In this document: positions 6,516-54,506 of the stretch, one piece after another
How positions within the stretch are numbered: position 1 is the first letter of the stretch
Layout of the letters: each line of letters starts with the position of its first letter
DNA from: a bacterium ADurb.Bin212
GTDB taxonomy: Bacteria; Patescibacteriota; UBA1384; XYA2-FULL-43-10
Direction of reading: 5' to 3'
Length of the DNA: 64,000 nt
Assembly (NCBI GenBank): GCA_002070055.1
Contig: MWCM01000005.1
Span: 2,015-66,014 of the forward strand
Notes under the pieces: model-generated
What the model was told of the DNA's origin: nothing
Seen by the model: the letters and a program-made list of their open reading frames with translations, nothing else
Database searches by the model: none
Program-made: the position numbers and the translations under genes

Positions 6516-6518
6516 AAC

Positions 6519-7055
6519 TTATATTGTAATCAAATCCTTAATTTTTTCAAAAGTTTTGGATCCAATTCCCTTAATATTTTGGACTTCCGAGATATCTTTA
6601 AAACCTCCGTTATTATTGCGATATTCGATAATCCGGGAAGCGTAAGCGGGACCTATGCCAGGAAGAGTGTCGAGCTGAGAAGCACTAGCGGTATTCAAAT
6701 TAATCTTAGCACTTAGAGGAGAGCTGTTAGCTGTTGTTTTTGTTGCCACACCCGCTACATCTCCGCTGTCTGTAGTAGGCGCGGAAACCTCATTTGTCGT
6801 TGCAATTGTAGCAATGCCGTTGATCTTATTTTCCAGTTCGGCGATTTTTACATTCTGCTCATCAATCTTTTTTGATAATTGCTCTGCTCCTCCATTATTC
6901 ATTATTCTTAATTCATTATTCTCACTCGTTCTCCAATACAAATATCCCCCGCTCAACATAATGCATAAAAGAAGCACGGAGCCGATATACCACCTATAAC
7001 GAAAAATAAATTCATCTGTTTTACTATCTTTTTTCCCGGATTGTTCTGATATCAT
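6519..7055 (-). CDS. comEA: ComEA-like helix-hairpin-helix DNA-binding protein
   Basis: N-terminal TM helix. C-terminal LNTASASQLDTLPGIGPAYASRIIEYRNNNGGFKDISEVQNIKGIGSKTFEKIK is a tandem HhH ComEA signature. Confidence 0.8.
   Translation of the reverse strand: MISEQSGKKDSKTDEFIFRYRWYIGSVLLLCIMLSGGYLYWRTSENNELRIMNNGGAEQLSKKIDEQNVKIAELENKINGIATIATTNEVSAPTTDSGDVAGVATKTTANSSPLSAKINLNTASASQLDTLPGIGPAYASRIIEYRNNNGGFKDISEVQNIKGIGSKTFEKIKDLITI
6892..6921. repeat. AT-rich mini-repeat family 1 copy (CCATTATTCATTATTCTTAATTCATTATTCT), in frame inside comEA
   Basis: 31/31-nt identity with 15607-15637 (iscS). Encodes ELRIMNNGG on the minus strand. Confidence 0.7.
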
Positions 7056-9783: not shown

Positions 9784-9812
9784 TTGACAAACTTTGATTT
9801 TTATTATATAAT
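9784..9812 (+). promoter_or_regulatory. consensus sigma70-type promoter TTGACA-N17-TATAAT upstream of the Lnt-like gene
   Basis: Exact TTGACA (9784-9789), a 17-nt spacer, exact TATAAT (9807-9812). Followed by a leader with a 12-bp inverted repeat (CCTTTGAGCCTA...TAGGCTCAAAGG) and AGGAGG 6 nt before the ATG at 9975. Confidence 0.5.
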
Positions 9813-9974
9813 GATATAATTCGCACGCAGCGAAGTGTGTTTTTTGTGTACCTTAACAACTTTTCCTTTGAGCCTAATTAGGAATTAGGCTTTAGGTCTT
9901 AGCTTTTTTGGATAACCTAATTTCCAGCTAGGCTCAAAGGAGTAAAAACAAATCCCCTCAGGAGGGACGCCGCC

Positions 9975-25978: not shown

Positions 25979-26987
25979 AGACATATTTAAAAAATCCTCT
26001 TCACGAAGAAAAATCGATAGATCTGAAGGAGAAGAAAAAACTCCGGATATTATTTTGAGCACAAACAAGGCCATTGAGATTTTGTCGACACAAAAGCAAC
26101 ATCTAAATTCCAAGCAAGTTGAATTAAGTCTAGACAAAAAGCGTCTTAATAGAAAATTAGACCGCCAGATATTAAGAATCCACAGAACAAAAGAGCAAGT
26201 TGAAAAAAGGATAGAGTTTGTTCGAAACGGCGGCGCCAGGATTTCAATTCCATTCTTAAAGAATTCTGATCTATTTCTGCGCAGAAGACTTCTCTGGTAT
26301 AGGAATTGGCACAACAATTCAATCTCACCCAAACTTCACTTAACCGCCCTTGGGTCTTATCTAATAATCTCTGTCTTTTTAGCTATCATATTTATGCAGG
26401 GTGTGCCCAATAACACCTCCGCCCTTAATTCTGAACACCGTAAAACCTCTTTAGTATCTGCCATCTACACACCAGATAATCTGTCGCTTAAAAATAGCAA
26501 AGTGCAACTGCCTCAAGACGAGAAGCCGATATCTACTTTATATGAAGACAATTTAGCCGTTGACTTTTCCGATAAATCAAGCAAATTGGCCAGTGCTAAA
26601 ATTCGAACCATGGACAAGAACAAGCAAGAGCAATGGGTTGAATTTGTCTTGTTGCAACCGAAGGATTTACAACAACCCAGCTCTGAAAATATCAGCTCGA
26701 ACTCTTTAGTAAGCGCTTCAGCACATGCCGAACCGGACAATAGCCTGGTTGAGGCAAATATCGTTGATGTCACCAAAGAGATCAATAACAGTATAGTAAC
26801 CCTGAATGTTAATAATGCTGTTGCCGCAAAATATGAGGTCTCAAGCAACAATAGTCAAGCCACAGTTAAAGAGACTTTAATTATAGAAGACATTAGCGCA
26901 TTTAGTAAAAATCCCGACTATACGATCTCTTTTAGAGTAAAAACTCAAGGTCTAGCAATAATTCAAAAAGAAAACGGTGCCTATTAG
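25968..26987 (+). CDS. hypothetical coiled-coil/single-TM protein, translationally coupled on both sides
   Basis: Overlaps the TPR gene by 11 nt and the giant gene by 11 nt. Charged coiled-coil N-terminus and TM helix LHLTALGSYLIISVFLAIIFMQGV. Confidence 0.4.
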   Translation: MALKDIFKKSSSRRKIDRSEGEEKTPDIILSTNKAIEILSTQKQHLNSKQVELSLDKKRLNRKLDRQILRIHRTKEQVEKRIEFVRNGGARISIPFLKNSDLFLRRRLLWYRNWHNNSISPKLHLTALGSYLIISVFLAIIFMQGVPNNTSALNSEHRKTSLVSAIYTPDNLSLKNSKVQLPQDEKPISTLYEDNLAVDFSDKSSKLASAKIRTMDKNKQEQWVEFVLLQPKDLQQPSSENISSNSLVSASAHAEPDNSLVEANIVDVTKEINNSIVTLNVNNAVAAKYEVSSNNSQATVKETLIIEDISAFSKNPDYTISFRVKTQGLAIIQKENGAY

Positions 26988-29900
26988 CTTATCTGATTCT
27001 AATGGTTTAACGGTAATGAACATTGAGCCGCCAGTAATTGAAGACAACCGTGGTACCAAAGGTCAAATTAGCCTTGAAATAGTTGACGATGTCGCAACTT
27101 ACTTTATTGATAAAGACTACATCGAAAACGCTGAATATCCGATATTTCTTGACCCTACCGTAACGGTATCAACTTCAACTATCACAAATCCTAATTCATA
27201 TGCCAAAGACCGTACACTCTTAGAAACCAGTGACGGGACATTGGTGAATATATATTCTGACGGTGCCGCCATTAATTATCGCACCTCGTCAGACAAAGGA
27301 GCCAACTGGAGTTCCGCAACAAAAATAACAGATTCAGCAAATGCCGACGATAACGGCTTCTCCGCATGGATTGATGTGGATGATAATATCCATCTTACTT
27401 ACTCGGACAACAACACGAATCCTTACATATTTTACCGTCGCTTGTCTTACAGTTTTGCCACAACTGTCGTCTCAATCGGTGCAGAAAAAACCGTGGAATC
27501 ATCAGGGACCAGCCGTATGTATCCCTCAATTGTAGCCACAGAGTCATCAAACACTATTCACGTCGCTTACCGTTATTACGACGGAAGTGATTACACAATT
27601 AAAGTTAAGTCTAGCAGTGATTTTGGTGATAATTGGAGCGCCGCCTCTACTCTCTCTCCCGCTACCAATGCCAACGCCGCAACCTATCCCTGCGCAATTC
27701 TTTGGAACGACAAACCGGCAATTATTTATAATTATCAAAACGCCTCATTACGTTGGAATTATTACAACGGTAGCAGTTGGCAATCAGAAGGCTGGGACAA
27801 TGAATTGATAACAGCTGAAGTTGATGCTGATACCGGGCTAGAATTTACTGCAATAGAGTCGCCATTCAACAACTATCTACATCTTTCGTGGAGAGGAAGC
27901 GGCACTAACGGCATCAGGTATCTAAAAAACAACAATTCCGTAGCCGGTTGGGATGGAACCTCAACCGCCATAACTGCAGACCATAACGATAGATTTCCAA
28001 GTATTGGCGCCGGCACAAATGATTATATTAACCTTTATTACTCTGATTATGTTGGAGCTAATTCATATAATATCAAGTATATCTCTAAAAGTAGCGCAGG
28101 GTCTTTCGGGGCTGTTAACTCTGTGACCACGGATGACGCAAATAATTTAGTCTCTCATGCTGCCCAGAAAGCAACTTATTACAGGAACAATTCTTTGCTT
28201 TTTGATGGCACAGACGACCATGCCGACCTGCCAGATGGATTCTCCGATTTTACCGGAGGTTTAACATTGGAGTTGTGGGCATATCCTACCGCAGCGCAAA
28301 ATTACGCAAGATTTTTTAATTTTAGCAACGGCGCTCCAAATAACAACATTGTTTTTGGACGCACCGGCACAACGACGAATTTAGCATTTATTGTATGCAA
28401 CGGCACGAGCAGTTGCCCCACGGCAGTGACTGCCACTGGGGTACTTGAACTTAACAAGTGGCAGCATTTTGTCGTCACTCAAAGCGCAGCCGGAGCTGTG
28501 ACCATATATAAAAATGGAGTAAGCGTTGCCACCGGGACTCAGAATATCCCTACAAACATTACTCGCACCATAAATTATATCGGCCGAGGCGCTTGGGTAA
28601 CCGATTCATATTATAAAGGCAACATAGATGGGGTAAGAATTTACAATCGCAGCATTAGTTCAGGAGAGGTTACAGCACATTACCGTAGCGGAATCGGACC
28701 TAAAAAAATCCCCACAGATACAAATCAACTCGCGGCATATAATTTTGATGAGACCAGTGGCACCTCTGGCGCAGACGCTTCGGGAAATTCTATGACTGCC
28801 ACCCTTGTTTCTGGCCCCTCAAATCAGCACAATAGTGTGCCTTATAAAAATTCTAATAATTACGCAATCTACTCCCCCAACTCAAACGGCTACATTTCCA
28901 TTCCCGCCAATGCCTCAACCAATACCAACACAACCAATTTTACAATGGAAGCGTGGGTAAAGGCTAAATCTACCGGCGCTTGGCGTTGGATAATGGGCAA
29001 AAATAATAGTGGTAATTGGCTTGGCATTAACTCGGGCGGATATTTAAACTTTTCCACTGCCGGAGGAGCCAATAATATCTCCTCTACTGCTTATGTTACC
29101 GACGAAAAATGGCACCACGTGGCTGCAACCTTCGACACCGGCACTCTTAAGTTATATATGGACGGCAAAAACACCGATACTTGGACAGGGAAAAGTGTAT
29201 CTGCCCAAACCGGGGCAACTTATATCGGCTATAACGGATATGAATATTATTACGGTTGGATTAACGAAGCAAGGCTTTGGACAAAAACACTATCGGCCGC
29301 TGACATACTTAATCGATTTTCTGCCGGCTTGTTTGCAACTGGTGCACCAGAGGCTAATTTAGGCGGTGGCTGGTCTATGAACGATGCTTCCGGCACTACC
29401 GTAGCCGACTTTAGCGGTAATGGTAATACTGGATCGTTTGTTAACACCCTCTATTTCGATAACGTATTAAAAACCACTCTTTCGACTCCTTCCGTTACTT
29501 TTGTTGAGGGCACAGGTTCACCATACAATATTAAGTGGGGGCCTAAAGCAAAAGTATGGACTGGCATGGGAGCCAACACCAACTGGACAACCGCAGAGAA
29601 TTGGAGCGACGGTGTTGCACCAGTAGGCGGTGACAACCTGTTGTTTGACGGCCCAACCGGTGGCAGTTCGGTTGCCGATTCAGTACCGGACAACCTTGGT
29701 TCCATAGAAATTGTTAAGGAGAGCAGCATAACATTATATTTCAGCAAACATCCATCTACAAACGTTGACACTTTTAAAATTAACTTAACCGGTGATTGTA
29801 TTTTTAATGGGGGCATAGTTCAATCTGAAGGTGATACTACCGTCATGCACGCAGGAATTACAGATGGCCAAGGCAACGAACTATCCGCGTCCAATATTTT

Positions 29901-32900
29901 TGTCGGCCCCTCTGGCATCATTAATTTAGATGGTCTTGGCTTTCCTGCCAGGCAAGGTCCGGGACGCATATACCTGACAAACGACGAGAGAGGTTCCGGG
30001 CATGGCGGACAAGGTGGCGGGAGCCCCTATGGCGGCACAGCTTATGGCGACTTCTCGGACCCTGTTTCACTGGGCAGTGGAAACTACCGTGTAGCCGGAG
30101 GAGGCGCTTTAAAACTTAACGCCAGCCAGTCAATTATATTAGATGGTTCGCTAAGCGCCAACGGCTTAAGTAATTATGGCGGAAGCGCCGGAGGATCTTT
30201 TAATATAAGCGGAACCTATATTGCTGGAGTGGGTAGTGTTAAGGTTAATGGCGGAGCCGGAGACTATGGGACCGGCGGTGGCGGAAGAATTAAATTATCC
30301 TCAAACACTAATAATTTTATCGGCACATTACAGGCCAAAGCAGGAAATCAATCCGCCGGTATCAACGGAGGCGCAGGCACGATATTTAAAAAACTAGCTT
30401 CACAGACTTACGGCGATTTAATTATCGATAACGGCGACGCCACTCAGAACGGGCGCAACCAAACCTCAGCCTATTTAAAAGGCTCAAGTGGCGATACGGG
30501 CAGTTACCAATTTGATTCAATTACATTTAATAACTACGGCAAACTCGAGATTATCTCCGGACAAAGTTTAGCACTTAACAGTGGCACTATTACTGGTACC
30601 AAAACAGCGGGAGTAATAAATGCCGGAACAGTAAGCGTGCCGGACAACTGGTCTCTCAACTACTTCTATTCACATAAAAATGGCACATTATCCGGATGGA
30701 CTCAAACAAATTTAACAATAACCTCTGCCGGTAAATTAACTCATTATATCAATGATTCTACAGACACCTATGGCCTTAATCTAACACTAGATAGTCTAAC
30801 CGTAGATAGTGGAGGTGAGATTGACGTTAGTGAAGTAGGATATGCTTCGCAACAAGGCACAGGCAAAGGTAAGGTTATTACTGGTGGTTATGGCGATGGT
30901 GGTGGTTACGGAGGAGAGGGAGGACGAAACGACACCGATATGACTAGAAGTAACCCTTATGGAGATTATTCTAATCCAACTGAACTTGGTAGTGGCGGCG
31001 CTTACTCAGGTGGCGGCGGCAAAGCTTTATTAACCATAACTGGGACAGCCACAATTAATGGCAGTCTGCTCGCAAACGGACAATCAGCAAACTCCGGAGG
31101 GTCGGGTGGAAGTATTAATTTATCGGCTGCCACAATCACCGGCGGCGGCACAATCACGGCCAATGGTGGTTCGGGTGGCACAATTTACTCCGGTGGCGGC
31201 GGTGGTGGCAGGATACGTCTTGCCTCTACGGCCAACACTTTTAGCGGTACTCTAACCGCCCGAGGAGGCACAGGCTATAGTAGCAATTATTCAGGTGGGC
31301 CAGGAACTATCTATAAAAAACTTTCCAGCCAAAGCTATGGCGATCTAATTATTGATGATAACGGCAATACTCACCACAATAGATATTTTATGGGGGCATA
31401 CTTAAAAGATAAAGCTGACAGCGGTAGCTATCAATTTGATTCAATACAATTCTCTAATTATGGAAAACTTGAAGTTTTAGGAAGTCAGATAATTAATGCA
31501 ACTGCAACAACTATTACCGGCGACAAAAATTCCGGTTTTTCAAACGCTGGCACAATTAATCTACCCTCTACATGGAACCTCTCCTATTTATATATGCACA
31601 AAGGGGGCACAATAAGTGATCTTGCTAATAAATCGATTGTAGTGACATCAACCGGCTTCCTGACACATTATTTTAACAACTCCGAAGAGACATATTCAAT
31701 AAATTGGACATTAAATTCAGTTGAGGTGCAGACTAACGGCGAAATTAATACTACAAACAATGGTTATGCCGCCAATAATGGCCTCGGGCCCGGAGCATCA
31801 GCTGGCACGCCTTCTGGCTCTGGTGGTGGTGCATACGGCGGAAACGGTGCTGCTGGCACAGTTGGTGCAGGCGGAACTGCCTACGGCTCGGTAACAAACC
31901 CGACCAATCTTGGTTCAGGTGGCGGTGGCGGAGCTAATGCCGGTGGCGGTGCAATTATTCTAAATGTTAATACTCTGAATTTGTCCGGAACACTTGCCGC
32001 AAACGGAGCTGATAGTGCCGCCAATGATTACGCAGGAGGTGGTGCAGGGGGCAGCATAAATATCACTGCTAATACAATCAGTGGTTCTTCTGGCTCAATT
32101 ACTGCTAACGGCGGCTACAGTAAATGGAGAGGTGGCGGTGGCGGTGGCGGTAGAATTGCCATAAATTACACCACTGACTCATACACAGGCGGTCTATCGT
32201 CTCTAGCAATCTCCGCCAAAGGCGGCATGAACGGAGTGACTTGGGGTGAAGATGGTACACGCAAAGGTGCCGCCGGAACTATATATATCAAAAAAACCTC
32301 CGATGCTTACGGCAGTCTGAAGATTGATAATGCTGTAGCCACCACTACTGTAGCTAGGACCCCTTTGACTCTTCCATTGGCTTATAGCAATGTTACAATT
32401 TCTAATTACGGCAAAGCTACCATATCGACCAACGCTGATACGGCTCAGAACACTTTGGCCGTGAACGGAAATTTAACCGTGGGTGCAAACTCCGAGCTGA
32501 TACTCAACTCCGATAACGATGGCACTCCTGCCGCTGGGGCTTGGCCAATTATTACTGTGACTGGTGATGCTAATATTTCCGGTTCTGTTACCTCTAACGC
32601 TACCGGCTATATACATGATCTGGGCAGTGGCAAGGGCAACATAAGCGGTTCTTATGGTTCTGGTGCAGGGTATGGCGGCAGTGGTGGCAATTCCGCCAAC
32701 GGAGCAATTGGTGGGGTAACTTATGGCACAGAACGTGACAATAACTATATTGGAAGCGGAGGCGGTGGGGCAAATGGTGGGGCAGGTGGCGGCATGATAA
32801 AAATGTCGGTATCCGGATCTCTTGATCTAAGCAACACCGGAACTATTGCAAGCAACGGTGGAGCTGGGGGCACAGACGGTGGCGGTGGTTCTGGAGGTTC

Positions 32901-35900
32901 AATTCAGATCGTTTGCACTACTCTATCCGGCTCGGCTGGTAGCACCATCTCAAGCAATGGCGGAGCCGGAGGAGCAAATGGTGGCGGAGGCGGTGGTGGT
33001 AGAATAACAATTTATCCATCCAATGATAGTTATCTTGGCACTCTAACGGCAACCGGCGGTTCCGCCGGTTCTGGTGGAGCCACTGCTGGAACAAACGGCA
33101 CAGCAATTATTCAACACACACCTGGCTCCCTGACTATGAACTCACCTAACGACGCCGCTACTGATCAAATACAAAAAACAGTATTTCGCTTTAACTCGAC
33201 AGACATCGACAACGACTGGATACAATACAAATTACAGATTGCCGCAGATATAAACTTCAGCGATGGCGTTTCCACCTTTGACCAAACTCTCTCTCAAAAC
33301 CCAAGTAGTGGAGGTAGAAGCGCAATATTCTCCAATCAAGACAGAACCACGGGCAATGTCGCCGGAAGTGACGGATACTCTTCGGGCAGAGAAGCAATTC
33401 TCACACTGCAAACAAATCTGACTCAGGCAAGAACATACTATTGGAGATTCTACGCTTATGATCCAGAAGGAGTCGACTCTTTTGACGGCAGCCAGCACTG
33501 GTCACCAGCTTCAAGCATCAGATCGTTTACTGTTGCAAGCATCGACCATATTTCGTTCTCGACACCCCAACAAGAGAGCGTTGTTACTTTCTGTTCTGCA
33601 GTTATGACTGTAAATTTAAGAGACTCGAGTAATAACAATATCTACTTAACAGAGGACGACGGCCCCACAGCACTACAACTTAGCGCTGATTCAGCTTCAG
33701 GCTCATTTTATTCCGATTCAGATTGTGAGACGGCTATACCTAGCGATCAGGTTATAGTTGCAGTTTCTGGTAACTCTGCCAGTTTTTTCTACAAGGACAA
33801 CCAACCTTCGCCGGTAAACAATTATTTTACAATCACGGTTGCTGAAACACCATCTGAAGGATTAACAGATGCTACTCAACAGATAAGAATTAAGCCAGGC
33901 GATTTAGGGTCTTTTGAAATATCAGGGGCTCCGGTATCAATAGTTGCCGGTGCGGCTTTCTCTTCTCCAACAAACGACATTACCGTAACTGTAAAAGATA
34001 TTTTTGGGAACACAAAGAACGATTGGACCGGGCAAATCTGGTTCTATTCCTCCGATTCGCAAGCTGATTTAGTCTATGACGACTCAAATAAATATTCATT
34101 CACTTCCGGCGAAGGTCTGGATAACGGCACACACACTTTTGATGGCGGAAACTTCGTCTTAAAAACCAAAGGTAATCAATCTTTAGTAGTCCACAACTCA
34201 AGTGGTGGTGAATACGACGAAGTGGTAGCTATAACCGTTAACCCTGCGGCTATAGACCACTTCTCTCTCAGCGACTACCCACGCACAGCCAGCGGAAAAT
34301 TCGCCATGAGTTCTTTTTCTTGGGACACACCAGGATATTCAGACGCTCCATACGACCCGATTGTCACAGCATACGACCTTTACGGAAACATAAAAGATGA
34401 TTATGTTGGAGAAACATGGTTTGAACTCTACAAATCCACCGATGCGGCCGGTAATCCTTTGGATTCTAGCGCAAATTATGCCTTTGATTACGATTATACT
34501 AATCACTATACTTTTACCTCGGGTGACGGATTAGATAATGGCACTCACACTTTTGATGGCTCCGGCTTTACAGTAGTAACCGCAGCCAACGATCTACGCC
34601 TCAGAGTAAAAACTTCGGCGAATGGAGGTGTTTACACCGACTTTACGATAACAGTGAAGCCTCAATCGATTGACCACTTCCTTATTAGCTCAACTCCAAC
34701 CCTCTCCAGAAATGGAATAGATTGGGACAAAGAAGTAGACGAGGAGTTCATCGAAGACATCACCGTCACTGCATACGATACCTTTGGCAATGTAAAAACA
34801 GATTATTATTATAACGACGCAACAAAAGCCGGCATGATCTACTTCTATTCAAGCGACCCGCGCGCCGTACTTCCCTATTCCAAAACAGTCAGCACAGATT
34901 CCTCTGCCTGTTTAGCCTTCCCGCAAGCTGCCAACGGTTCTTATACTTTAGATACAACCAACACCCCCTTAAACTACTTTAAATTCTTAACAGGGGGGCC
35001 ACAAACGATCTCAGTTTCAGAATGTATTGATCCTACCTCTGCATACGCCACTGGAACTGATAATAAATATGACCCTAGGCTCGAAGGAGTAAATCCGCTC
35101 AAAGTTATGGCCGCAACGGGCCAAATCCCCGCCACAGGTGATGATCCAAATAAAATATTTGTAGCTAATCATGTGCCCGGCTCAACCCACACAGCAGTCG
35201 ACCATTCTGACGATTCGAACGATCTTATCGAAGCTGGACCAGGCCATGAGCAGGCAACTCTTTCTTGGACTAATCCCTTTGATATCCCAAGCGACCCCGC
35301 TCTTGACGCTCAGGCATATATTTATCGTTGCACAACAAACTGTGAAAATATCGCAAACTTTAGTAGGATTATTACAGATCCGGCCACAATTAGCGTAACC
35401 GCTGGAGAAGTTTCTGAATACACCGATACAGGGCTAACAAATGGAACCGAATATTTTTACAAGCTCTCTTATGCTTATAAACGACAGGATGATAGTTATA
35501 TCGAGAGCAACAAATCAATCACAGTCAGCACAACTCCGGCAGACATTGCACCAAGAAATATCTCTGCCTCACAACTTGATATAAGTGACAGCACAAACCC
35601 GGGCAAGGTAAGAGTGGACTATCAACTACGTTGGGATTCGACTGTTTCCTTGGCATACTATAACCCTGCCACCAACTCATGGCATAATGCATCACCTAGC
35701 GCCATGAGCGGAGATGTGGGCCCCGGCATCACTGGAGATGAAGCACTAATATCTCACACCGCTTATTTGGACCCTAACATTGATTTCGACGGTCAATATT
35801 TAACCGATACCTTTAAGGTTAGGGTTAAGGTAACAGTCAACTCAGCCAGCACTTATGCCGATTCAGCGACTCTTGATCTTGATTCAAAAAATCCGGCTGG

Positions 35901-37689
35901 CGCCACCCTGGTTGTGGATGCGACAGACGGCAACAGCGCCGATCTTACCTTTTCTGCCTCGGATAATAATGAGCTATCCATGAAAGTCGCTGGAGATCCC
36001 GACTTTACTGGAGTAGACTGGCAAGCGTTTACCGAAACAATCGAAGATTTTGGAATCAACGGTATGAACTCTGTCTATGTAATTTATAGAGATTCTTTTA
36101 ATAACACCACAACAGTAGAACAAGAAATTTTTAGCGCGCCACAAAACGTAAGCATTAAGGACGGTTCAAGCGCGGCGTCACAGACATATCGGCTACTTAT
36201 TACTTGGGATGATCTAATACCAATGCCGGAACATTACAATGTTTTTCGTTCAATAGATGGCGAAAATTACTCTCACTACGACACCACTGTTAAAAACGCC
36301 GCAATTGATATTAATCTTGATCCGGATACGCTTTACTCATATAAAATTCAAGCAGAAGATGGGGCCGGCAATAAATCAGCTCTATCGGATGCCGTTTCGT
36401 CACGTCCGGGAACCGCCCCCGACGTAACCGCAGACCCGGCAGTTGAGTTGTTTGGCTGGAAACAAGATGTGGGAGTAAGAGCAAGGATTACTTGGGATAC
36501 CGACCAGAACTCCGATTCTTTTGTCGCTTTTGCCAAAGAGCCGATTAAAAGCGGTTCCGTATTAGATACCGAGTCAGGCAACGAAGATGCAGTCTCTGTA
36601 GTTGGATCCCCCGATATGGTAACATCGCACGAGATAAATCTCTCCAATCTGGAGCCATCGACTAAATATTATTTTAAGGTATTATCTAAAAACGAAATTC
36701 AGATCACCGGCTACTCAGATGTGTTTGAGTTTACTACCCCGGAAAGAGTTTTGCTGTTAATTTCTGGCATGAAAATTACCGACATTACCAATAATTCAGC
36801 ATTTATCTCTTGGACCACATCAAAAATATCAACCAGCTTGGTTGAATATGGGCAAACCAGCCAGTATGGTGAAACAATTGAGGACCTGAGCCAGAACACC
36901 GAGCATAAATTCAAGCTGGAAAATCTGATATCAGGAGACTACCATCTTCGGGTCAGCGCCAGAGATGTAGATGGCAATTTAACTATCTCTGACGAATATA
37001 TCTTCAATATTCCACCAACCCCTACTATTACAGATATAGCCATCACTGACATTAGCGACAACACTGCAAAAGTTTCTTGGAGCACAAATGTGTCATGTAA
37101 TTCAAATGTCGATATTGAGAGCGATAGTGGCAACGGCTCACAAGGCAATGCTAGTTATACTACAAGCCATTCTGTAAACCTTGTGGGGTTAAGCGCCAAA
37201 ACCAACTATACCTTGAAGATAAGATCAGTTGACACATACGGTAATACTGCTATCTCGGAGAGCAGACAGATTACTACCACCGCAGACTTGTTTGCCCCAA
37301 AAATTATTAACCCTAAATCAGAGATAACTTCAACCGGATCAGGTGAAAACATTAAATATCAGTTGATTGTATCGTGGGAAACAGATGAGCCGTCTACCAG
37401 CAAAGTTGAGTTCGGCCAGGGTGTTGGTAATGCCTACGAATCATCCAGCAAAGAGGAGTTGTCCTTAAATATGACTCATACAATAATTGTTACTGATCTA
37501 AAACCAAACTCTGTTTATCACTTTAGAATAAAAAGTGGCGATAAAGCCAATAATGTCGCATACTCTGATGATTACACTATTACCACCCCACCCAAAGAAA
37601 AAGACATTATTAGCATAATAATAAACGCTATTGTCGGGCCTATGAACGATATCTACCAGGGAGTAATTAATAAGTTATTCAAAAGGTAA
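26977..37689 (+). CDS. giant (3570 aa) multidomain surface protein: BNR/sialidase-like N-terminus, LamG-like lectin domains, three Gly-rich beta-helix-like super-repeats, four C-terminal FN3-like domains
   Basis: A single uninterrupted 10.7-kb ORF. Asp-box/BNR repeats ([18 protein letters not shown]). LamG-like blocks ([13 protein letters not shown]...LELWAYP...[17 protein letters not shown]...[10 protein letters not shown]...LKLYMDGK). Periodic [11 protein letters not shown]...TANGGSGG...[10 protein letters not shown] units. C-terminal FN3-like modules ([17 protein letters not shown]..., [16 protein letters not shown]..., [19 protein letters not shown]...). Confidence 0.8.
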
Positions 37690-41902: not shown

Positions 41903-42709
41903 CTAAACGAACAAGAGGGCGACCAACACCAAAGCCATCACTACATCTACTCTGCTCTTGATCCGGCTGGCCTCTTTGGCCGACATACTACCACGCACAG
42001 CTAGCTGAACCACAGTCGGCACCCAAAGCAGGGCCACTAACCTCACCCAACCCAAGGCTTGCAGAAGAACCAACCATGTGGCAAGGCAAGCGACCGCCAG
42101 ACTCAGTGCCGCCACCCTTTTGGCCCCCGTTTCACCCACAGCCTGGATCCATGTCCATTTGTGGCCAATGTCGTGGGGGTGGTCTTCGAAGTCCTTTAGG
42201 ATCTCGCGGCCGTGGATCACAGATGCTACCGCCACAAACAGCAACAGCACTCCAGAATCTTCATTACCTTGACCCAGAGTTACCAAGAGCACCGTTAGAC
42301 TGGAAGCCCCGGCAACCAGTAGGTTCGGCAGTACCGGAACAGTTAACAGCTCAGAGTAGAGAAGACCGGTGACGATGCAAAGGAATATCAGAGCCCCTGA
42401 TTGCCAGCCCAGATCCAACCAGACTGCCATCGCCAACAAGCCGGAGAGTAGCCACAGAGTTGTGGCATACAGCCGGTATTGCCGGGGGTTTTGGGCAGCA
42501 TGGCGCTTGCCCATCCTTGCATCGTGCTGCCGATCACGCAGGTCATTCTGGACCATGGTGGCACACAGCACTACAAACACCGCCACAGCCGGCAAGACAG
42601 AGGCTGAGAGATCGCCGCCGGCATATTTTACGCTAACAATCACGAGCAGCACGGCAAAGAGGTTAATCCTCCACCGTGTCGCCTCGATATAAGGCCGGAT
42701 ACTCTTCAC
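41903..42709 (-). CDS. UbiA-family membrane prenyltransferase (high-GC island)
   Basis: Polytopic. First Asp-rich motif NDLRDRQHDAR (NDxxDxxxD) and second DFEDHPHD. GTG start preceded by GAGGTGA. Visibly GC-rich. Confidence 0.65.
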   Translation of the reverse strand: MKSIRPYIEATRWRINLFAVLLVIVSVKYAGGDLSASVLPAVAVFVVLCATMVQNDLRDRQHDARMGKRHAAQNPRQYRLYATTLWLLSGLLAMAVWLDLGWQSGALIFLCIVTGLLYSELLTVPVLPNLLVAGASSLTVLLVTLGQGNEDSGVLLLFVAVASVIHGREILKDFEDHPHDIGHKWTWIQAVGETGAKRVAALSLAVACLATWLVLLQALGWVRLVALLWVPTVVQLAVRGSMSAKEASRIKSRVDVVMALVLVALLFV

Positions 42710-46025: not shown

Positions 46026-46319
46026 CTTTGGGATATCATCCCCTTTCTTCGGCCGCTTGCACCACGGCCAGTGATACTGCCCGCAATACGGGCAGGGTTG
46101 CTTGCGCCGGTTGGGGTAACCTACCGGACGCGGGGGCACTACGGGTCCAACGGGCCCGATCGGCATAGTATCCAACCCCTTTCATTTTCAACGGTTCTGA
46201 ATTGGCAACTTTTTATAACATTTTTTGACGATATTCGCAACATTTTTTGCTTTACAAATTTTGCAAAAAGTTATAGTATTACTTATCGTCGCAACATCGA
46301 CTCCAAGCGAGGTAAAGCC

Positions 46320-47036
46320 ATGCCCGAATTGACTATCGCCACATTCCTGACACTGCCGTTCACGATGGGCACAAGAGTGGCTATCTCCCAAGGGTGGCTA
46401 TACTCCATGGACGAGGTAGTCATTCACCCTGGCATTACCCACCACAACGGGGTGGACTTCGCCTGCCCATGGGGTACACGCGTACTGGTGCCGGCCGACG
46501 GTGTGGCAGTAGCCAGCTACCACACCTACTACATGGGTGATTTCCATGGTCGTCTGATCGGCTATGGGCTAGGGTTGTTTGTGCAGATCTGGCACCCCGA
46601 GGCCCAACTCTTCACCTCTTACGCACACCTATCCAAGGCGTCTAAGGAGATTCCCTACATCTCACCGGTCCGCCAGGGCGACAGTTGGCAACCGGCGGCA
46701 GCCATCTATGTGCCGCTGGAGGTGTTTCTGGCGCAAGGTGTTGAGGTGAAACGGGGTGACTATCTTGGCGAAGTTGGCCGCACAGGCCTACTGCTCCACG
46801 ACGAGACACCCAGCAACCCCCCAGCAACCAAGGCGACCGACCCCACTTGGGATCCTGCAGGTGATCACTTGCACTGGGAGTGCTACAGACGCACACTCGA
46901 CGGCCTCCGCAAGGACCCTGAGGCGCGCTGCGACCCCTTCGGTGTCTATGGCCTCCGCGAGGCCTACAACATCAACAAAGCTAGCGGTCTGTTGCTGGCC
47001 GGCCCCAAGGGCAGACCCCTATGGGCCAACGAGTGA
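46320..47036 (+). CDS. M23-family (LytM-like) metallopeptidase (high-GC island)
   Basis: HPGITHHNGVDFACPWGTRVLVPADGVAVASY (HxxxD ... GT.V.A...G.V) and GDHLHWE (HxH). RBS GAGGT before the ATG at 46320. The longer upstream ORF extension is non-coding GC-rich sequence. Confidence 0.7.
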   Translation: MPELTIATFLTLPFTMGTRVAISQGWLYSMDEVVIHPGITHHNGVDFACPWGTRVLVPADGVAVASYHTYYMGDFHGRLIGYGLGLFVQIWHPEAQLFTSYAHLSKASKEIPYISPVRQGDSWQPAAAIYVPLEVFLAQGVEVKRGDYLGEVGRTGLLLHDETPSNPPATKATDPTWDPAGDHLHWECYRRTLDGLRKDPEARCDPFGVYGLREAYNINKASGLLLAGPKGRPLWANE

Positions 47037-47130
47037 CAGTCGCGAAATGTCGAACCAGCGGCCCCGATCAATCGGGGCCGCGCCGCATTTTAGCTTTACT
47101 TTCAAGACTAATAAGGATATATTTTTAGGT

Positions 47131-47610
47131 ATGGGCAATCGCAAGAAGCTTTCAATTTGTTTTTTATGTACTGACAATGTCGGACGCAGCATAGTAGCAG
47201 AGTATTGTCTGCGGAATTATTTAACAAAGAACAATATTAAAGAGATCAACGTATCCTCTGCAGGAACTGATGCAGCTAGCGACACCTCCAGCTTTTCTAT
47301 GGCTCATGTAGATGAGATGAAAAAAATGGGCATTAATGCTTCGAAGCACGCAAGAATTCAAATGAATCAAAATATTGTGAACAATACCGACCTGATCATC
47401 TGCATGGATAGCTGGCACCAGACTTGGCTTAAGGAGCATTATGGCATAGATGCACCTTTGTTTAATGAGATATATAATAAAGAATCTAGTTCCATCCGCG
47501 TCTCTGACCCGGAACAGAAAACTAGCCTAGACAATCGGATGATAGAAATCACACACTATATCAATAACGCGATTCCACAGCTGGTCAATAATATTAATAA
47601 GTTTAGGTAA
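47131..47610 (+). CDS. low-molecular-weight protein-tyrosine phosphatase / ArsC-like
   Basis: P-loop CFLCTDNVGRSIVAE (CX5R(S)) at the N-terminus. Low-GC, native-like. The 5' part of ORF 46756..47610 is an out-of-frame overlap with the M23 gene and is rejected. Confidence 0.75.
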   Translation: MGNRKKLSICFLCTDNVGRSIVAEYCLRNYLTKNNIKEINVSSAGTDAASDTSSFSMAHVDEMKKMGINASKHARIQMNQNIVNNTDLIICMDSWHQTWLKEHYGIDAPLFNEIYNKESSSIRVSDPEQKTSLDNRMIEITHYINNAIPQLVNNINKFR

Positions 47611-48836: not shown

Positions 48837-50693
48837 GTGGCTGAGTTGTTTGAGTTTCTTGCAGTTGCGCTGTCGTACATATGGGGGTCGCTCCCCTTTG
48901 GGTACACGGTGGGGAAGCTCGCCGTAGGGAAGGGCTTCGACATCAGAAACCATGGCTCCGAAAGCATCGGTTTCACCAATGTCTGGCGAGTACTGGGCAT
49001 GAAGGTAGCAATACCAGTGCTCATCCTCGACCTGCTCAAGGGATACCTGCCTGTGGCGATCGCCATGCACACGCTTGGTGTTACAGCCGCCTGGCTCTGT
49101 CTGATCGCGGTAATGATCGGGCATGCCAAGTCGCTCTACTTCCGACTCACCGAAGGTCATTTCAGCGGCGGTAAGTCGGCGGCTTCTGCGATGGGTGGCA
49201 TCGTTGCTCTTCAACCAGTGCTCGCCGGATGGGTGTTCCTGTTCTTCCTGGCAGTACTGCTTGTGAGCAGAACAATGTCGGTATCTTCGATGCTTGCGAG
49301 TTTCTGTGCAGTCTGGCTATCCTACCACTACGAACTGGGACACGGATGGCACACTCTGTTCTGGGTTGTTGCAGTGCTGATTATGTACACGCACCGCCGC
49401 AACCTAGGGCGCTTGGCTCATGGCACCGAGAACAAGATGTTCGAGTGGTCGGACATGCGGTGGCCATGGCAGAAAAAGCCAACGACTAAAGAGCAACCCG
49501 AGATCCTGGCAGGGTTCGTGATTCACGCCATGGACTGGAGAGATCTCCTGCAATCCATCTTCTCATGGTGGATAGGCTTTCTCGGGATGTGGGAACGCAC
49601 GAGACCCATCGCAACGTGGATATTGGCTCACGTACCGGTCATCGAGAACGCCGAGATCAGAAACATCCGACTCAAAGATGGCCGAAGGGTTAGAGTCCTG
49701 GTGTTGGCGATTCCTTGGGTGTCCAGCATGATCAAGCAGGTCCGGTATGCCAACGAGATTGACGAAAGAGAGGAAAAGATCCCGTCGGGATCGGAAGGAG
49801 CCGAAGCCAGAGATGAGGTGAAGAGAGCCAAACAAGCTCCGGAGTATAGGAGGTCGAAGTGGTTCCGTGATAGGCTCTGGCAAAGGCTTCGAAGCACAGC
49901 GGTGCAGACCAGACGTAGGGGTTGTTCGGTGTTAGGTCTTGGCGCTCTACTTTCGACCGAGTTCAACGGAGGTGCAGACCTACAGAAGTGGTGCAACGCG
50001 AGAGGCCTTGACCTGACCGTAGACAACGGAGCGGCCTACACAGCCGTTTCCACGGTACAGGCGGTGATTAAAGAGACACCCATGCCCCTCGACCAAGCTA
50101 AGGTCAAGGTAGTAGGTGCCAGCGGCTTCATCGGTCGCATTACCGCCAAGTACATGGAGAAACTAGCCGCTCAAGTGACCGTAATAGGCAGGGACGAGGC
50201 CAAGTTAACCGGGTTCAGTCAATCCACGGCAATCTCAACCGCGCTGGAAGACGCTTACGACGGCGACGTTGTAGTGCTTCTTACCAGCGCGCCCGGACAG
50301 GTGGTGAACCTCGAGAACTGCACCAAGTTCAAGCCTGGCGCTACCTTCATGGACGGCGCTAGGCCTGTTGACTTCGACGAGCAAATACTCAAAGAACACC
50401 CCGAACTCAACTTCAAGCTGGTGCGCTGTGGGGTCATCAAGTTTCCACAAGAAGAAGGCAGAGACGTTCTGTGTGGTGTGGATTTCCACTTCGATGGCTA
50501 CTACCCAGCTTGCGTCGCCCAGTGTGTAATGGTGGCGGCCGGAGGAGAAGAGGGAAGATCGAACGCCACCAACGGAGCGTCAATCAGGCCAGCCAAGTAT
50601 GAGTACTTCGCAAATAGTGCCGAGGCATGTGGCTTGGAGGTCATAACCTCGCGAAGATCGGAGGGAGATGTATTCGAGGGCAATTACAACTAG
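48837..50693 (+). CDS. plsY: glycerol-3-phosphate acyltransferase PlsY fused to a ~400-aa C-terminal extension with Rossmann-like NAD(P)-binding motif (high-GC island)
   Basis: N-terminal ~200 aa: LSYIWGSLPFGYTVGKLAVGKGFDIRNHGSESIGFTNVWRVLG, 5 TM helices, typical PlsY. The same frame continues without a stop for 618 aa and includes VKVVGASGFIGRITAKYM...VTVIGRD. GTG start. Visibly GC-rich. Confidence 0.6.
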   Translation: MAELFEFLAVALSYIWGSLPFGYTVGKLAVGKGFDIRNHGSESIGFTNVWRVLGMKVAIPVLILDLLKGYLPVAIAMHTLGVTAAWLCLIAVMIGHAKSLYFRLTEGHFSGGKSAASAMGGIVALQPVLAGWVFLFFLAVLLVSRTMSVSSMLASFCAVWLSYHYELGHGWHTLFWVVAVLIMYTHRRNLGRLAHGTENKMFEWSDMRWPWQKKPTTKEQPEILAGFVIHAMDWRDLLQSIFSWWIGFLGMWERTRPIATWILAHVPVIENAEIRNIRLKDGRRVRVLVLAIPWVSSMIKQVRYANEIDEREEKIPSGSEGAEARDEVKRAKQAPEYRRSKWFRDRLWQRLRSTAVQTRRRGCSVLGLGALLSTEFNGGADLQKWCNARGLDLTVDNGAAYTAVSTVQAVIKETPMPLDQAKVKVVGASGFIGRITAKYMEKLAAQVTVIGRDEAKLTGFSQSTAISTALEDAYDGDVVVLLTSAPGQVVNLENCTKFKPGATFMDGARPVDFDEQILKEHPELNFKLVRCGVIKFPQEEGRDVLCGVDFHFDGYYPACVAQCVMVAAGGEEGRSNATNGASIRPAKYEYFANSAEACGLEVITSRRSEGDVFEGNYN

Positions 50694-51875: not shown

Positions 51876-51904
51876 TTGACTTAAATTGTATTTTGTGCTA
51901 TAAT
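51876..51904 (+). promoter_or_regulatory. near-consensus sigma70 promoter TTGACT-N17-TATAAT upstream of the muramidase-amidase gene
   Basis: TTGACT 51876-51881, a 17-nt spacer, TATAAT 51899-51904. AAGGAGG RBS at 51985-51991, 8 nt before the ATG at 52000. Confidence 0.5.
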
Positions 51905-51999
51905 TGCTTAATTCTCTAAAGCAGAGATATATTTTTTGTTGCATAAAAATACTCCCTGCTTCAGCAGGACAAGCATCACAATCGAAGGAGGCGAGGCGC

Positions 52000-54009
52000 A
52001 TGAAAGCGCTCTCCTACGCCGTATTTGTTGTTCGGTTGTTGTGGTACATGGTGTGGGGAGGGGCTTACGCCATATCCTCCTTCATCATTGTGCCATTCTT
52101 CATCGCGCTGGCACGGCTACTAGTTGCCGTGCTAAAGCAGTGCTGGGGCAACCTGGCCTGCTTCTACAAGAGGTGGGTCAAGAGGAGTGGCCTGGGCCGT
52201 GTGCTTCTTTGGCACGGTGCCGCCTTCGTCGTAATCATGGTTGTCGTCGGCTCATGGGGAGACGCACCGCGCACGCCCCAAGCCGGAAGCAACCAGGCAA
52301 AGGAGCAGGTGGCACCCGCTACCACTCCCGAGCCCATGGACAAAAAGCCCGAGGAGAAGCCTGCGCCTGCAGAGGTAAAGGATACTTCTCCGAAGGGGGC
52401 GCTAGGCAAGGGCGCATGGATCATCGAGCTGGACGAGGCCGAACTTGGCCAAGTCAAACAGATCAAAGATCCGGAGGCTCGCCAGAGTGCGCAGGTAAAG
52501 GCGGTTGTGGCTAAGGCCAAGAAAAACGGCCTGGGGCATATCATCGTCAAGACTGCCCACTTCGGTAAGCCGTATGGCAGCTGCCCGCCCGAGATGGCGC
52601 GTGAACTTGGCGAAGCCTGCCGCAAGGCTGGCATCCGCTGCTTCGGCTACGGCCGAATTCTAGCGGACGATGCTGATGCCGAAGCGGAGATGGCCAAGCG
52701 AGCCATGCGCCCTGCCAGAGATGGCGGGCTCGGGCTCGATGGCTACGTCTTTGACGCCGAAGGAGAGGTTAAGGGCAAAGATAAGAATCTGCGCCTAATC
52801 CTCGCTGATGTCAAAAGCTGGCTTAAGGCTGCGGCGCCTAATAAGCGCCTTGGCTACTCCAGCTTCGGCATCCCCTCCTACCACAGAGGACTCGCTTGGG
52901 ACACACTCAACGAGTTCTGTCACTACGCCATGCCTCAGTTGTATTGGCGCAGTTGGCAGAGTACTCAGAAGTGGTCCTTGGATGAGTCCCTTGGCAAGTC
53001 GCTCGCCTCTTGGCGCGACTGCCCTCTGCCGGTGGTGCCCACCGTGCAGAGCTACTCAGGAAAGCTTGGCGGCGTAGCCCGTGTCGAACCAGCCAAGATG
53101 AAGAAGTTCCTGGCCGGCCTCGACACAAGCTCCGGCTTCAACTCCTTCCGCTGGGACTATACGGGCCCAGAGCAGTGGCAGGTAATCCGCGACTTTAAGT
53201 GCGGGCAACCTAGTTACAAGCTCAAAGTTCCGGCGGAAGGCAAGCAGACTAGTGCCGCCTCGACCACCATGCCCAAGATGCCGCTTGAGCCAACTGGCAA
53301 AGGCGACCTCACCGGCATGGTTGTGGTCATCGACCCCGGCCACGGTGGCACCGACCCCGGCATGGGTTGGAAGGTGGAATGGAAGAAGAGCGGCAAGGCC
53401 CACAAACTCAAAGCGTGGGAAGCCGCCGTCACCTACCCCACCTCCTGGCAACTGGCCGCCACCCTACGATCCCGAGGTGCTTACGTCTACCTCACCGCCT
53501 GGGACCCGATCATGGCCCAGGTGCCGACGGGCGCTCGGGATCTACCGTTGCCGAGGAAAGCAACCTTCACGGACGACTGCAAGAAAGTCCGCGGAGGCAT
53601 GTTTTCGCAGCGCTTTGCCACAGTTTCGACTGCGGTTAAGCGCTTCGACGCCTCCGGAAAGAAACTGGGCTGGCGCCATGTTGCCTTCGTCAGCATCCAT
53701 GTGGACTCGCTCGGTGGAAATGTGAGCGGTGCCCACGCTGTTTGCTGGCCGGGAGATGTTGACCTTGGCGAACCGATCGCAGCTGAACTTGCAAAGATCG
53801 GCGTTGCCACACCCGGCAGACCACTCTGGGAGAAGACGAAGAGGATGGGCATCATTGCCCCAAGTAACGTTCCCCTTCGTCTCCGACTGGTGGTCGAGAT
53901 GGGAGTCCCGGCCAACGATGGCGGTGACTCATGGCGACTGCGATCACAAAAGCATCGACAGAAAATCATCGATGCCATCGCCAACGGCCTCGCCGCCGTT
54001 AACGACTAG
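52000..54009 (+). CDS. membrane-anchored bifunctional peptidoglycan hydrolase: GH25-like muramidase domain plus C-terminal N-acetylmuramoyl-L-alanine amidase (Amidase_3) (high-GC island)
   Basis: N-terminal TM/signal anchor, then a Pro/Ala/Lys linker. GH25-like blocks LGHIIVKTAHFGKPYG, GIRCFGYG, LDGYVFDAEGE and MPQLYWRSWQ, compared with the GH25 pattern FVIIKATEG...G.YHF...LWLD.E...PLWIA.Y. Amidase_3 signature MVVVIDPGHGGTDPGM. Confidence 0.6.
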   Translation: MKALSYAVFVVRLLWYMVWGGAYAISSFIIVPFFIALARLLVAVLKQCWGNLACFYKRWVKRSGLGRVLLWHGAAFVVIMVVVGSWGDAPRTPQAGSNQAKEQVAPATTPEPMDKKPEEKPAPAEVKDTSPKGALGKGAWIIELDEAELGQVKQIKDPEARQSAQVKAVVAKAKKNGLGHIIVKTAHFGKPYGSCPPEMARELGEACRKAGIRCFGYGRILADDADAEAEMAKRAMRPARDGGLGLDGYVFDAEGEVKGKDKNLRLILADVKSWLKAAAPNKRLGYSSFGIPSYHRGLAWDTLNEFCHYAMPQLYWRSWQSTQKWSLDESLGKSLASWRDCPLPVVPTVQSYSGKLGGVARVEPAKMKKFLAGLDTSSGFNSFRWDYTGPEQWQVIRDFKCGQPSYKLKVPAEGKQTSAASTTMPKMPLEPTGKGDLTGMVVVIDPGHGGTDPGMGWKVEWKKSGKAHKLKAWEAAVTYPTSWQLAATLRSRGAYVYLTAWDPIMAQVPTGARDLPLPRKATFTDDCKKVRGGMFSQRFATVSTAVKRFDASGKKLGWRHVAFVSIHVDSLGGNVSGAHAVCWPGDVDLGEPIAAELAKIGVATPGRPLWEKTKRMGIIAPSNVPLRLRLVVEMGVPANDGGDSWRLRSQKHRQKIIDAIANGLAAVND

Positions 54010-54112
54010 GCCGATTCCGCGGAGCCTAGCAACAAAAATCCGCGTTTTCAGAGCCGCCCTCGCAAGGGGCGGCTCTTAGTATTTAAAACCAGACAGAACA
54101 ACAAGAAAAATG

Positions 54113-54141
54113 TTGACAAACACACTCTCTTCTGTTAGTAT
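54113..54141 (+). promoter_or_regulatory. sigma70-like promoter (TTGACA-N17-TAGTAT) for the rpsF-ssb-rpsR operon
   Basis: Exact -35 TTGACA. The -10 TAGTAT matches 4 of 6 positions. Preceded by the hairpin AGAGCCGCCC-TCGCAAG-GGGCGGCTCT, which terminates the upstream gene. Confidence 0.4.
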
Positions 54142-54470
54142 AACTATGCTTATCGGCAGCAGATAAGGCGCCGTGAACTATCACACGGAGGGAAACTGGG
54201 AGGTTTCTCGGTAGTTCACGGCGTTTGCCCGACCCCTCAGCCCATATTGCATAATACTTATTGCATTTTGCTGTGTTCGATCTTCAATACTCAATGTTCG
54301 AGATTCGAAAATTGCTATTGGAAATTGAAATTCCCCCGCTTCTTTAGCTGGGGGAACTCGCGGCCGACCTAAATTGGCCAACATTATGCGAGTGCCAAAT
54401 TATAAAACGTATTAATTTACCACTGAAAATCATTTAACGGAATACATGGAAATTCTGTGTTTTCTGTGAA
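54142..54470 (+). promoter_or_regulatory. long structured 5' leader of rpsF (candidate S6:S18 autoregulatory element)
   Basis: Hairpins CTTATC-GGCAGCA-GATAAG, GCCGTGAACTA...TAGTTCACGGC (about 60 nt with internal GGAGGGAAACTGGGAGG), CCCCCGC...GCTGGGGG, and ACTCGC-GGCC...GGCC-GCGAGT. A ~360-nt untranslated region is unusual in this compact genome. Confidence 0.35.
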
Positions 54471-54506
54471 GATAATTATGTGGAAGAAAATAACATAGGA
54501 GTTTTT

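Follow-up and report, generated by a model that had tools for sequence, protein, structure and literature searches.

What does the gene at positions 52000-54009 of this stretch of DNA encode, and on whose cell wall would its product act? The stretch, 64,000 nucleotides of contig MWCM01000005.1 from the metagenome-assembled bacterium ADurb.Bin212 (assembly GCA_002070055.1), is referred to here as the window. The reading frame is free of interruptions, with a G + C content (GC) of 0.599 and a G + C content at third codon positions (GC3) of 0.70. A deposited protein of bacterium ADurb.Bin212 (P0001), whose name mentions the amidase only, is 100% identical to the 669-residue product, and the open reading frame (ORF) proposed in an initial annotation of the sequence is therefore real and intact. 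Analysis of the product points to a membrane-tethered enzyme with two peptidoglycan-degrading modules in series, encoded by a fused resident gene and probably acting on the wall of the cell that produces it.

A tethered protein with two predicted wall-degrading modules

Pfam analysis placed an N-acetylmuramoyl-L-alanine amidase domain (Amidase_3) at the C-terminal end of the protein, with a score of 39.3 bits against a gathering score of 27 and a match over profile positions 1-173 of 174. Among proteins of solved structure, the best relative of this domain was Staphylococcus aureus LytH (7tj4; E value, 1.1e-6 with the single sequence and 1.8e-7 with a profile), whose His, Glu, His, and Glu align with H448, E474, H567, and E633. 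All full-length relatives and the stand-alone amidases described below share these four residues, which we take to be the His-Glu-His zinc ligands and the catalytic Glu. Both the profile match and the residue alignment bear out the Amidase_3 domain of the initial annotation, and the module is predicted to be a zinc-dependent amidase that removes peptide stems from the glycan strand. LytH and CwlD are membrane-anchored Amidase_3 enzymes, and the anchor of LytH lies at its N-terminus. LytH requires the partner protein ActH; the window amidase differs from LytH in being fused behind a predicted glycan-cleaving barrel and in having approximately 50 residues inserted between conserved blocks 2 and 3.

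The middle of the protein is predicted to form a triosephosphate isomerase (TIM) barrel of the glycoside hydrolase (GH) type. An AlphaFold model built with a 22-sequence alignment (predicted local distance difference test score, pLDDT, 95.6; predicted template modeling score, pTM, 0.92) displayed the eight strand-helix units of a classical TIM barrel, with helices present after strands 6, 7, and 8. At the end of strand 4 stands D252-A-E254, of which E254 did not vary among 22 diverse family members or among 64 viral ones. We conclude that this D-x-E acid pair is of a type found in enzymes whose substrates are N-acetylated sugars. From the sequence, the domain could be a muramidase, a glucosaminidase, or a lytic transglycosylase.

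An N-terminal signal anchor had been annotated at the start of the protein. The N-terminus is indeed hydrophobic, but judged by hydropathy it is more than a simple anchor, since two hydrophobic segments are separated by a basic loop containing KRWVKRSGLGR. A hydrophobic segment directly precedes the linker in relatives too, and the first part of the N-terminus differs among them. The positive-inside rule, applied to the last segment, would place the catalytic part outside the cell. The Pro/Ala/Lys-rich linker that follows was annotated correctly, with 8 Pro, 8 Ala, and 7 Lys within 48 residues.

From this architecture a mode of action can be proposed in which the catalytic part faces the exterior, tethered by the producer's membrane. 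The amidase module would strip peptide stems from the glycan strand, and D252-x-E254 would act on an N-acetylated sugar of the same strand, by hydrolysis or by lytic transglycosylation. An amidase-first order of action is familiar among wall hydrolases; here, too, the amidase may remove the peptides first and the barrel then cut the bare glycan strands. The two activities are expected to work together, since their genes adjoin in relatives and are fused in the window protein. The window encodes a sortase and an M23 peptidase, which indicates that the organism has peptidoglycan of its own. The producer's own wall is the most likely substrate because the protein stays tied to the membrane by a linker of approximately 48 residues, and the enzyme would then serve growth, turnover, or cell separation. 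The tether, the short linker, the lack of a binding or secretion module, and the housekeeping setting of the gene all favor this reading.

The alternative that survives best is a host-directed weapon or feeding enzyme, with which an epibiont would open or digest the wall of its host at the contact zone, for access or for the harvest of muropeptides and sugars. NCBI taxonomy lists bacterium ADurb.Bin212 under 'unclassified Bacteria'. Since the closest relatives of a neighboring window protein (62-66% identity) come from 'Candidatus Saccharibacteria' metagenome-assembled genomes (MAGs), a reduced epibiont-type organism is a reasonable guess, and cultured Saccharibacteria are, according to one report, epibiotic parasites (PMC8080830). 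An attack on a host would also agree with the occurrence of the barrel family in endolysin-like viral proteins that lyse cells, with the different histories of the modules, as is common for genes of inter-organism interaction, and with the loss of one orthologue through an insertion sequence (IS), which indicates that the gene is not strictly essential. However, the protein is anchored in the producer's membrane through a linker of only about 48 residues and carries no recognizable host-binding module, its gene keeps a conserved position among housekeeping genes, no secretion system or toxin-immunity partner lies nearby, and no immunity or inhibitor gene is evident. We therefore regard an attack on a host as unlikely, though worth keeping in mind, and remodeling of the own wall as roughly twice as probable.

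Several points weigh against the own-wall reading and the two-module enzyme behind it. The case for action on the own wall consists of the tether and the housekeeping context, and the topology is a prediction from hydropathy. The glycan-cleaving activity of the barrel family is likewise predicted, from sequence and model. Among solved chains, the barrel profile finds at best marginal matches, which are divided among GH25, GH29, and GH18, and the family has no significant sequence match to the clostridial wall enzyme Cwp19 or its family GHL10, which are discussed below. The Asp of D-x-E is replaced by Asn in 3 of 22 aligned family members. TIM-barrel glycosidases cleave a wide range of glycans, and a secondary wall polymer could therefore be the target here; since the orthologue in one related contig (L006) is split by an IS, the gene can be lost in some populations.

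Wall hydrolases are tools for growth, division, and possibly host feeding in ultra-small epibiotic bacteria, and few have been identified in Patescibacteria, for which this locus provides a concrete candidate. A pattern scan of GTDB species genomes found no relatives of the hydrolase, and the literature on the barrel family, Saccharibacteria amidases, and GC-rich gene sets yielded nothing specific.

The middle barrel and its relatives

According to profile searches, the barrel domain belongs to a large family: an exhaustive search of 1.84 billion representatives returned 1059 clusters at E ≤ 1e-3 and 428 at E ≤ 1e-10. No NCBIfam model matched the family, a cluster look-up of the nearest barrel relatives gave no names, and a PDB search with a profile of five close members found nothing. 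One match to an 'endolysin' was obtained from PHROGs among 22 members, and none for the window protein. Pfam GH25 (PF01183) gave no match at E ≤ 1 for the whole protein and none at E ≤ 10 for five close family members. Among 55 distant members, all Pfam matches remained below threshold; PF01183 appeared in four of them (best E value, 2.5e-4), and one or two members each matched Glyco_hydro_cc, the EndoS barrel, or GDPD. A profile search of PDB sequences returned the GH25 chain 4ff5 (E value, 3.8e-4), with the D-x-E of the family aligned to D-V-E of the chain, followed by GH29 fucosidases (7e-4) and GH18 chitinases (0.03). Chain 4ff5 was the only solved chain of a wall-lytic family with a profile E value below 1e-3.

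The initial annotation described this domain as a GH25-like lysozyme, and it might be a very divergent true GH25 muramidase, in which case the protein would be a classical lysozyme-plus-amidase autolysin or endolysin. D-x-E is the catalytic motif of GH25 (PMC7954357), and the Asp/Glu pair expected of a GH25 enzyme is present at the end of a central strand, as in the GH25 muramidases Cpl-1, cellosyl, and GHIP (4ff5). The alignment to 4ff5 and the four weak PF01183 matches among distant members point the same way, and GH25 domains are often joined to amidases and wall-binding modules in endolysins. Yet PF01183 was not matched by the protein or its four close relatives, the matches to GHL10, GH85, GH18/EndoS, GH29, and Glyco_hydro_cc were equally weak, and the conserved first strand, G-x-G-x-W-I-W, contains no Asp. 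The helices after strands 6, 7, and 8 also give the model a (beta-alpha)8 fold, whereas that of GH25 enzymes is (beta-alpha)5(beta)3, and GH25 was not among the best structural matches. GH25 identity by sequence, with matches below threshold only, was rejected, and a true GH25 enzyme appears improbable to us. What remains of the annotated lysozyme is the acid pair, set in a barrel of the classical (beta/alpha)8 type that belongs to an unnamed family. A Cpl-1 sequence scored 10.4 bits against the family profile, with D-A-E placed on D-Y-E; this match was treated as a lead only.

A further comparison is offered by Cwp19 of Clostridioides difficile, a peptidoglycan lytic transglycosylase with a GHL10 domain, as was demonstrated experimentally (PMC6016235). 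The conserved pocket of Cwp19 (structures 5oq2 and 5oq3) consists of W36 on strand 1, D195/D196 on strand 4, S250 on strand 5, and Q295-x-Y297 on strand 6, together with G328 (PMC5765458). W140, D252, S287/S288, and Q313-x-Y315 of the window protein, which lie on the same strands and in the same order, are possible counterparts. However, the sequence identity is only 17%, and where Cwp19 has Asp-Asp-Tyr, the barrel family has an invariant Glu two residues past the Asp. The GHL10 profile (PF02638) gave no match for the window protein or its close relatives and a sub-threshold match for one viral member (E value, 0.0044), and the PDB profile search did not return Cwp19 at E ≤ 10. The two proteins also differ in layout: Cwp19 binds the wall by its CWB2 repeats instead of a membrane anchor and has no amidase, whereas the window protein has both anchor and amidase. 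In comparison with GH18 enzymes, such as hevamine (1hvq) and the spore cortex-lytic enzyme SleL (4s3j), the barrel lacks the DxxDxDxE motif and has no significant Pfam GH18 match; the only trace of GH18 was that individual family members weakly matched the EndoS TIM-barrel family.

On the basis of sequence and model, we conclude that the barrel is likely a separate, unnamed family within the TIM-barrel glycosidase superfamily, with Cwp19/GHL10 and GH18 as its nearest relatives. We propose tentatively, as a nearly even call, that it is a new family of peptidoglycan glycan-cleaving enzymes, with at least 1000 clusters at 50% identity, which serves as an endolysin module in phages, as a tethered partner of amidases in Patescibacteria, and in fusions with NTF2-like domains in Anaerolineae, and that the hydrolase genes of these Patescibacteria belong to a small GC-rich envelope gene set. 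The absence of so large a barrel family from Pfam and NCBIfam makes it relevant to the search for lysins and to the annotation of proteins that are now 'hypothetical' or misnamed, such as the 'nuclear transport factor 2 family protein' of Anaerolineae.

A pattern scan of IMG/VR identified 66 viral loci that encode the barrel domain, and tail-fibre-like, DNA methyltransferase, and polymerase genes were found among the sampled neighbors. SH3_3 was present in 17 of the 64 complete viral homologues, and Peptidase_M23, PG_binding_1, SLH, and PG_binding_3 in one each; no other Pfam family was detected in these 64 proteins, except for one weak match to another TIM-barrel family. The standard layout of endolysins places a wall-binding domain after the catalytic domain, and phages appear to use the barrel family as an endolysin catalytic domain. 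The window protein resembles modular phage endolysins in that two predicted wall-cleaving activities share one chain, and its barrel family is joined in viral contigs to SH3_3, SLH, and PG-binding modules as in such enzymes. Unlike phage endolysins, it has a membrane anchor in place of a wall-binding module and is encoded in a housekeeping setting without a holin. The endolysin-type architecture read from the sequence in the initial annotation thus holds for the two predicted hydrolase modules, which here are membrane-anchored, and for the family's use by phages; the locus itself is not flanked by phage genes.

Relatives of the two modules were also seen in other combinations. The related contig L078 encodes a membrane-anchored protein of 495 residues that unites barrel, SH3_3, and NlpC/P60 (2510-3997), with a stand-alone amidase gene directly 3' of it (4001-4984) and a GC3 of approximately 0.71 for both genes. 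In a very large subfamily (P0049 and P0154-P0270), the barrel is followed by a C-terminal SnoaL_2 domain (NTF2-like), and the named members come from Anaerolineae/Anaerolineales MAGs. Their NCBI name, 'nuclear transport factor 2 family protein', refers to the small C-terminal domain only, so that the barrel of approximately 250 residues stays unannotated in public records. Contig L080, which is more distant, encodes a DUF4015 protein (PF13200; 2197-3399), presumably another glycoside-hydrolase-like barrel family, with an amidase of the window subfamily two genes downstream (4001-4819) and a Mur ligase gene near. This suggests that amidases and barrel glycosidases have been paired more than once.

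Fusion, module exchange, and base composition

The closest non-fused relatives of the barrel (P0006 and P0007) are membrane-anchored proteins of approximately 305 residues with 39% and 32% identity over the domain. In three contigs (L009, L010, and L011), a barrel gene of this non-fused type is followed after 3-5 nt by a separate Amidase_3 gene of approximately 335 residues with its own anchor and Pro/Ala linker. These stand-alone amidases share 54-61% identity with the window amidase domain and also carry a motif, MPKMPL-PT-G-L-G, that corresponds to the inter-domain linker of the window protein. As judged from these gene pairs, the window protein is a fusion of two adjacent genes, each of which has its own membrane anchor in related Patescibacteria-like contigs.

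Comparison with the nearest fused relative (P0002) revealed 80-95% identity over residues 101-440 and only 20-50% over residues 1-100 and 441-620. Residues 441-620 were closer to the stand-alone amidases of L011 and L009 (55-70%) than to P0002. The three modules thus have different histories, and the differences in identity to P0002 from segment to segment indicate that modules have been exchanged between lineages.

The gene as a whole occupies a conserved chromosomal position. It is preceded in the window by genes for a sortase, an M23 peptidase, a low-molecular-weight phosphatase, YchF, a PlsY fusion protein, and GpsA, and followed by those for S6, SSB, S18, EF-P, and a PRC-barrel protein. 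The whole arrangement of ychF-plsY-gpsA, hydrolase, and rpsF-ssb-rpsR recurs in L006 (83% identity); in L001 (44% identity), the hydrolase gene lies downstream of ychF-plsY-gpsA with the upstream order as in the window. The L006 orthologue is split at codon approximately 442, between the barrel and the His motif of the amidase, by an IS with an rve-type transposase (5696-6835, minus strand). Its remainder past the insertion has 88% identity, and GGTAGTG is found on both sides of the insertion. No integrase, phage gene, or holin was found near the hydrolase gene, and the only tRNA gene of the window (5377-5461) is 46 kb away. A tblastn search against 50,697 GenBank phage records gave no match.

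The base composition of the gene stands out. Its GC3 of 0.70 compares with 0.32-0.45 for about 38 other window genes, most genes having a GC of 0.34-0.45, and the rise is exactly one gene long, from start codon to stop codon, with an AT-rich promoter and leader. The 'high-GC island' of the initial annotation is therefore real as a compositional shift but misleading as an island, and the marks of a genomic island, namely patchy presence, foreign flanks, and mobility genes, were not found at the locus. Excess GC3 was also present in four further single genes, encoding an Lnt-like protein (9975-11288; 0.77), UbiA (41903-42709, minus strand; 0.64), the M23 peptidase (46071-47036; 0.64), and the PlsY fusion (48837-50693; 0.66). 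In other assemblies, the excess persists in genes related to the amidase, the barrel, and the PlsY fusion: the barrel and amidase genes of L001, L002, L006, L009, L011, and L078-L080 have a GC3 of 0.60-0.78, against 0.35-0.5 for their neighbors, at protein identities down to 33-45%. In 30 viral loci, by comparison, the GC3 of the homologous gene was only 0.03 above that of the flanks.

A single recent transfer cannot explain an excess that is kept across divergent relatives, and because relatives share the excess and it does not reach beyond the coding sequence, the GC spike alone is no evidence of recent transfer. A recent acquisition of the gene, in a prophage remnant or on a genomic island, is very improbable: a GC3 of 0.70 in a genome of approximately 0.40, the frequency of the barrel family in viral contigs, and an amidase segment that resembles amidases from other lineages more than the one in the nearest fused relative would agree with this, but the same position in L006 and L001, the GC excess in all relatives down to 38% identity and in four other single genes of the window, its confinement to the coding sequence behind a conserved AT-rich promoter, the lack of an integrase, tRNA, or phage gene nearby, and the tblastn result speak against it. 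The horizontal acquisition assumed in the initial annotation was consequently not upheld for the gene and is supported at the level of modules only; a possible phage neighborhood gave way to housekeeping neighbors. The hydrolase gene is best described, from its sequence context, as a resident chromosomal gene with its own conserved promoter.

Two candidate explanations of the GC excess are repeated module replacement from a GC-rich pool and selection or biased conversion acting on these coding sequences. A GC3 near 0.7 that persists in envelope genes of genomes with a GC3 near 0.4 implies an unknown maintaining force or repeated replacement from a GC-rich gene pool, and a handful of envelope genes would thus keep a foreign-looking composition over long evolutionary times. 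A wall hydrolase with two activities is of a known kind; the catalytic family of the barrel and the persistent GC-rich envelope gene set are the more interesting by-products of the analysis. All five dispersed GC-rich genes of the window (Lnt-like CN_hydrolase, UbiA prenyltransferase, Peptidase_M23, PlsY fusion, and barrel-amidase) are envelope-related, each with the excess confined to the coding sequence.

Transcription signals and neighboring genes

The coordinates of the gene and its elements are listed in Table 1. The promoter and the ribosome-binding site of the initial annotation were both found, and the -35 hexamer and extended -10 element are kept in orthologues. Promoter matches of 11/12 are not rare individually, as the window contains five against 2.1 ± 1.6 in shuffled sequences. 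Upstream of the orthologues in L006, L001, and L002, the -35 element TTGAC(T/A) was invariant and the -10 element was TATAAT, TATTTT, or TATAGT, and this conservation across three other assemblies is better evidence for a promoter than the score itself.

Table 1. Positions of the hydrolase gene, its protein domains, and the flanking signals in the window.
Feature	Positions	Strand	Basis or remark
Putative sigma-70-type promoter, TTGACT-17 nt-TATAAT, TG just 5' of the -10 hexamer	51876-51904	+	Consensus scan, 11/12
Leader hairpin TCTCT-AAAGC-AGAGA (51913-51927), then T6 (51932-51937)	51913-51937	+	Read from sequence
Shine-Dalgarno sequence AAGGAGG	51985-51991	+	8 nt 5' of ATG; identical in L006
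Coding sequence, 669 residues and stop	52000-54009	+	ATG at 52000; stop codon ends at 54009
Predicted membrane anchor: hydrophobic residues 5-45, basic loop 46-67, last transmembrane segment 68-86	52012-52257	+	Kyte-Doolittle windows > 1.5
Pro/Ala/Lys/Glu-rich linker, residues 88-135	52261-52404	+	Composition count
TIM-barrel glycoside-hydrolase-like domain, residues 135-400	52402-53199	+	
D252-x-E254, end of strand 4	52753-52761	+	
Q313-x-Y315, after strand 6	52936-52944	+	
Inter-domain linker with conserved MPKMPLEPTGKGDLTG motif	53200-53322	+	Alignments; motif also precedes stand-alone amidases
Amidase_3 (N-acetylmuramoyl-L-alanine amidase) domain, residues 442-665	53323-53994	+	Pfam PF01520
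Conserved residues H448, E474, H567, E633	53341-53343, 53419-53421, 53698-53700, 53896-53898	+	
Intrinsic-terminator-like hairpin, 11 pairs (8 G-C)	54050-54076	+	41 nt 3' of the stop codon

The leader contains a hairpin that has a stem of 5 bp and is followed by a run of six T, in a region approximately 10 nt past the -10 hexamer. Equivalent 5-bp stems, judged by eye, were present in L001 (CCTCC/GGAGG) and L002 (TGACT/AGTCA), with both sides changed, the pairing kept, and T runs behind them. RNAalifold on the four leaders did not recover this first hairpin, with L002 misaligned, and found only a second, weak one; Rfam gave no match in the leader or the downstream region at gathering or E-value thresholds. 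The hairpin could possibly act as a 5' stabilizer or a weak attenuator. A perfect 12/12 consensus promoter was found at 9784, 5' of the GC-rich gene at 9975, and a similar hairpin with TTTTTTGT follows it (9784-9850). As TTTTTTGT is scattered through the window, with 21 occurrences against 8.8 expected, it was rejected as a specific leader signal, and its enrichment probably reflects a local style of T-runs.

Downstream of the terminator-like hairpin, a second promoter-like site (TTGACA-17-TAGTAT, 54113-54141) lies 5' of rpsF-ssb-rpsR. It is followed by a strongly structured leader of 335 nt (region 54113-54479; minimum free energy, -109.9 kcal/mol; z score, -5.5 relative to shuffled sequences) without an Rfam match, which may be a ribosomal-protein autoregulatory leader.

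The PlsY fusion gene (48837-50693) encodes a glycerol-3-phosphate acyltransferase (residues 1-200) joined to a Rossmann-type domain of approximately 400 residues with weak similarity to long-chain acyl-ACP reductase (TIGR04058, E value 3.9e-8, far below the cut-off; PDB 6jzu, E value 0.004), and the fusion is conserved in two relatives (L001, 2963-4708; L006, 1363-3129). The ORFs of the M23 peptidase (46071-47036) and the low-molecular-weight phosphotyrosine phosphatase (46756-47610) overlap by approximately 280 nt in different frames. Since the Pfam match of the phosphatase begins at residue 134, its true start is probably further downstream than the listed one. Finally, a single ORF of 3570 residues with a GC of 0.45 extends over 26977-37689, with two small membrane-protein genes upstream and ABC transporter-like genes downstream.

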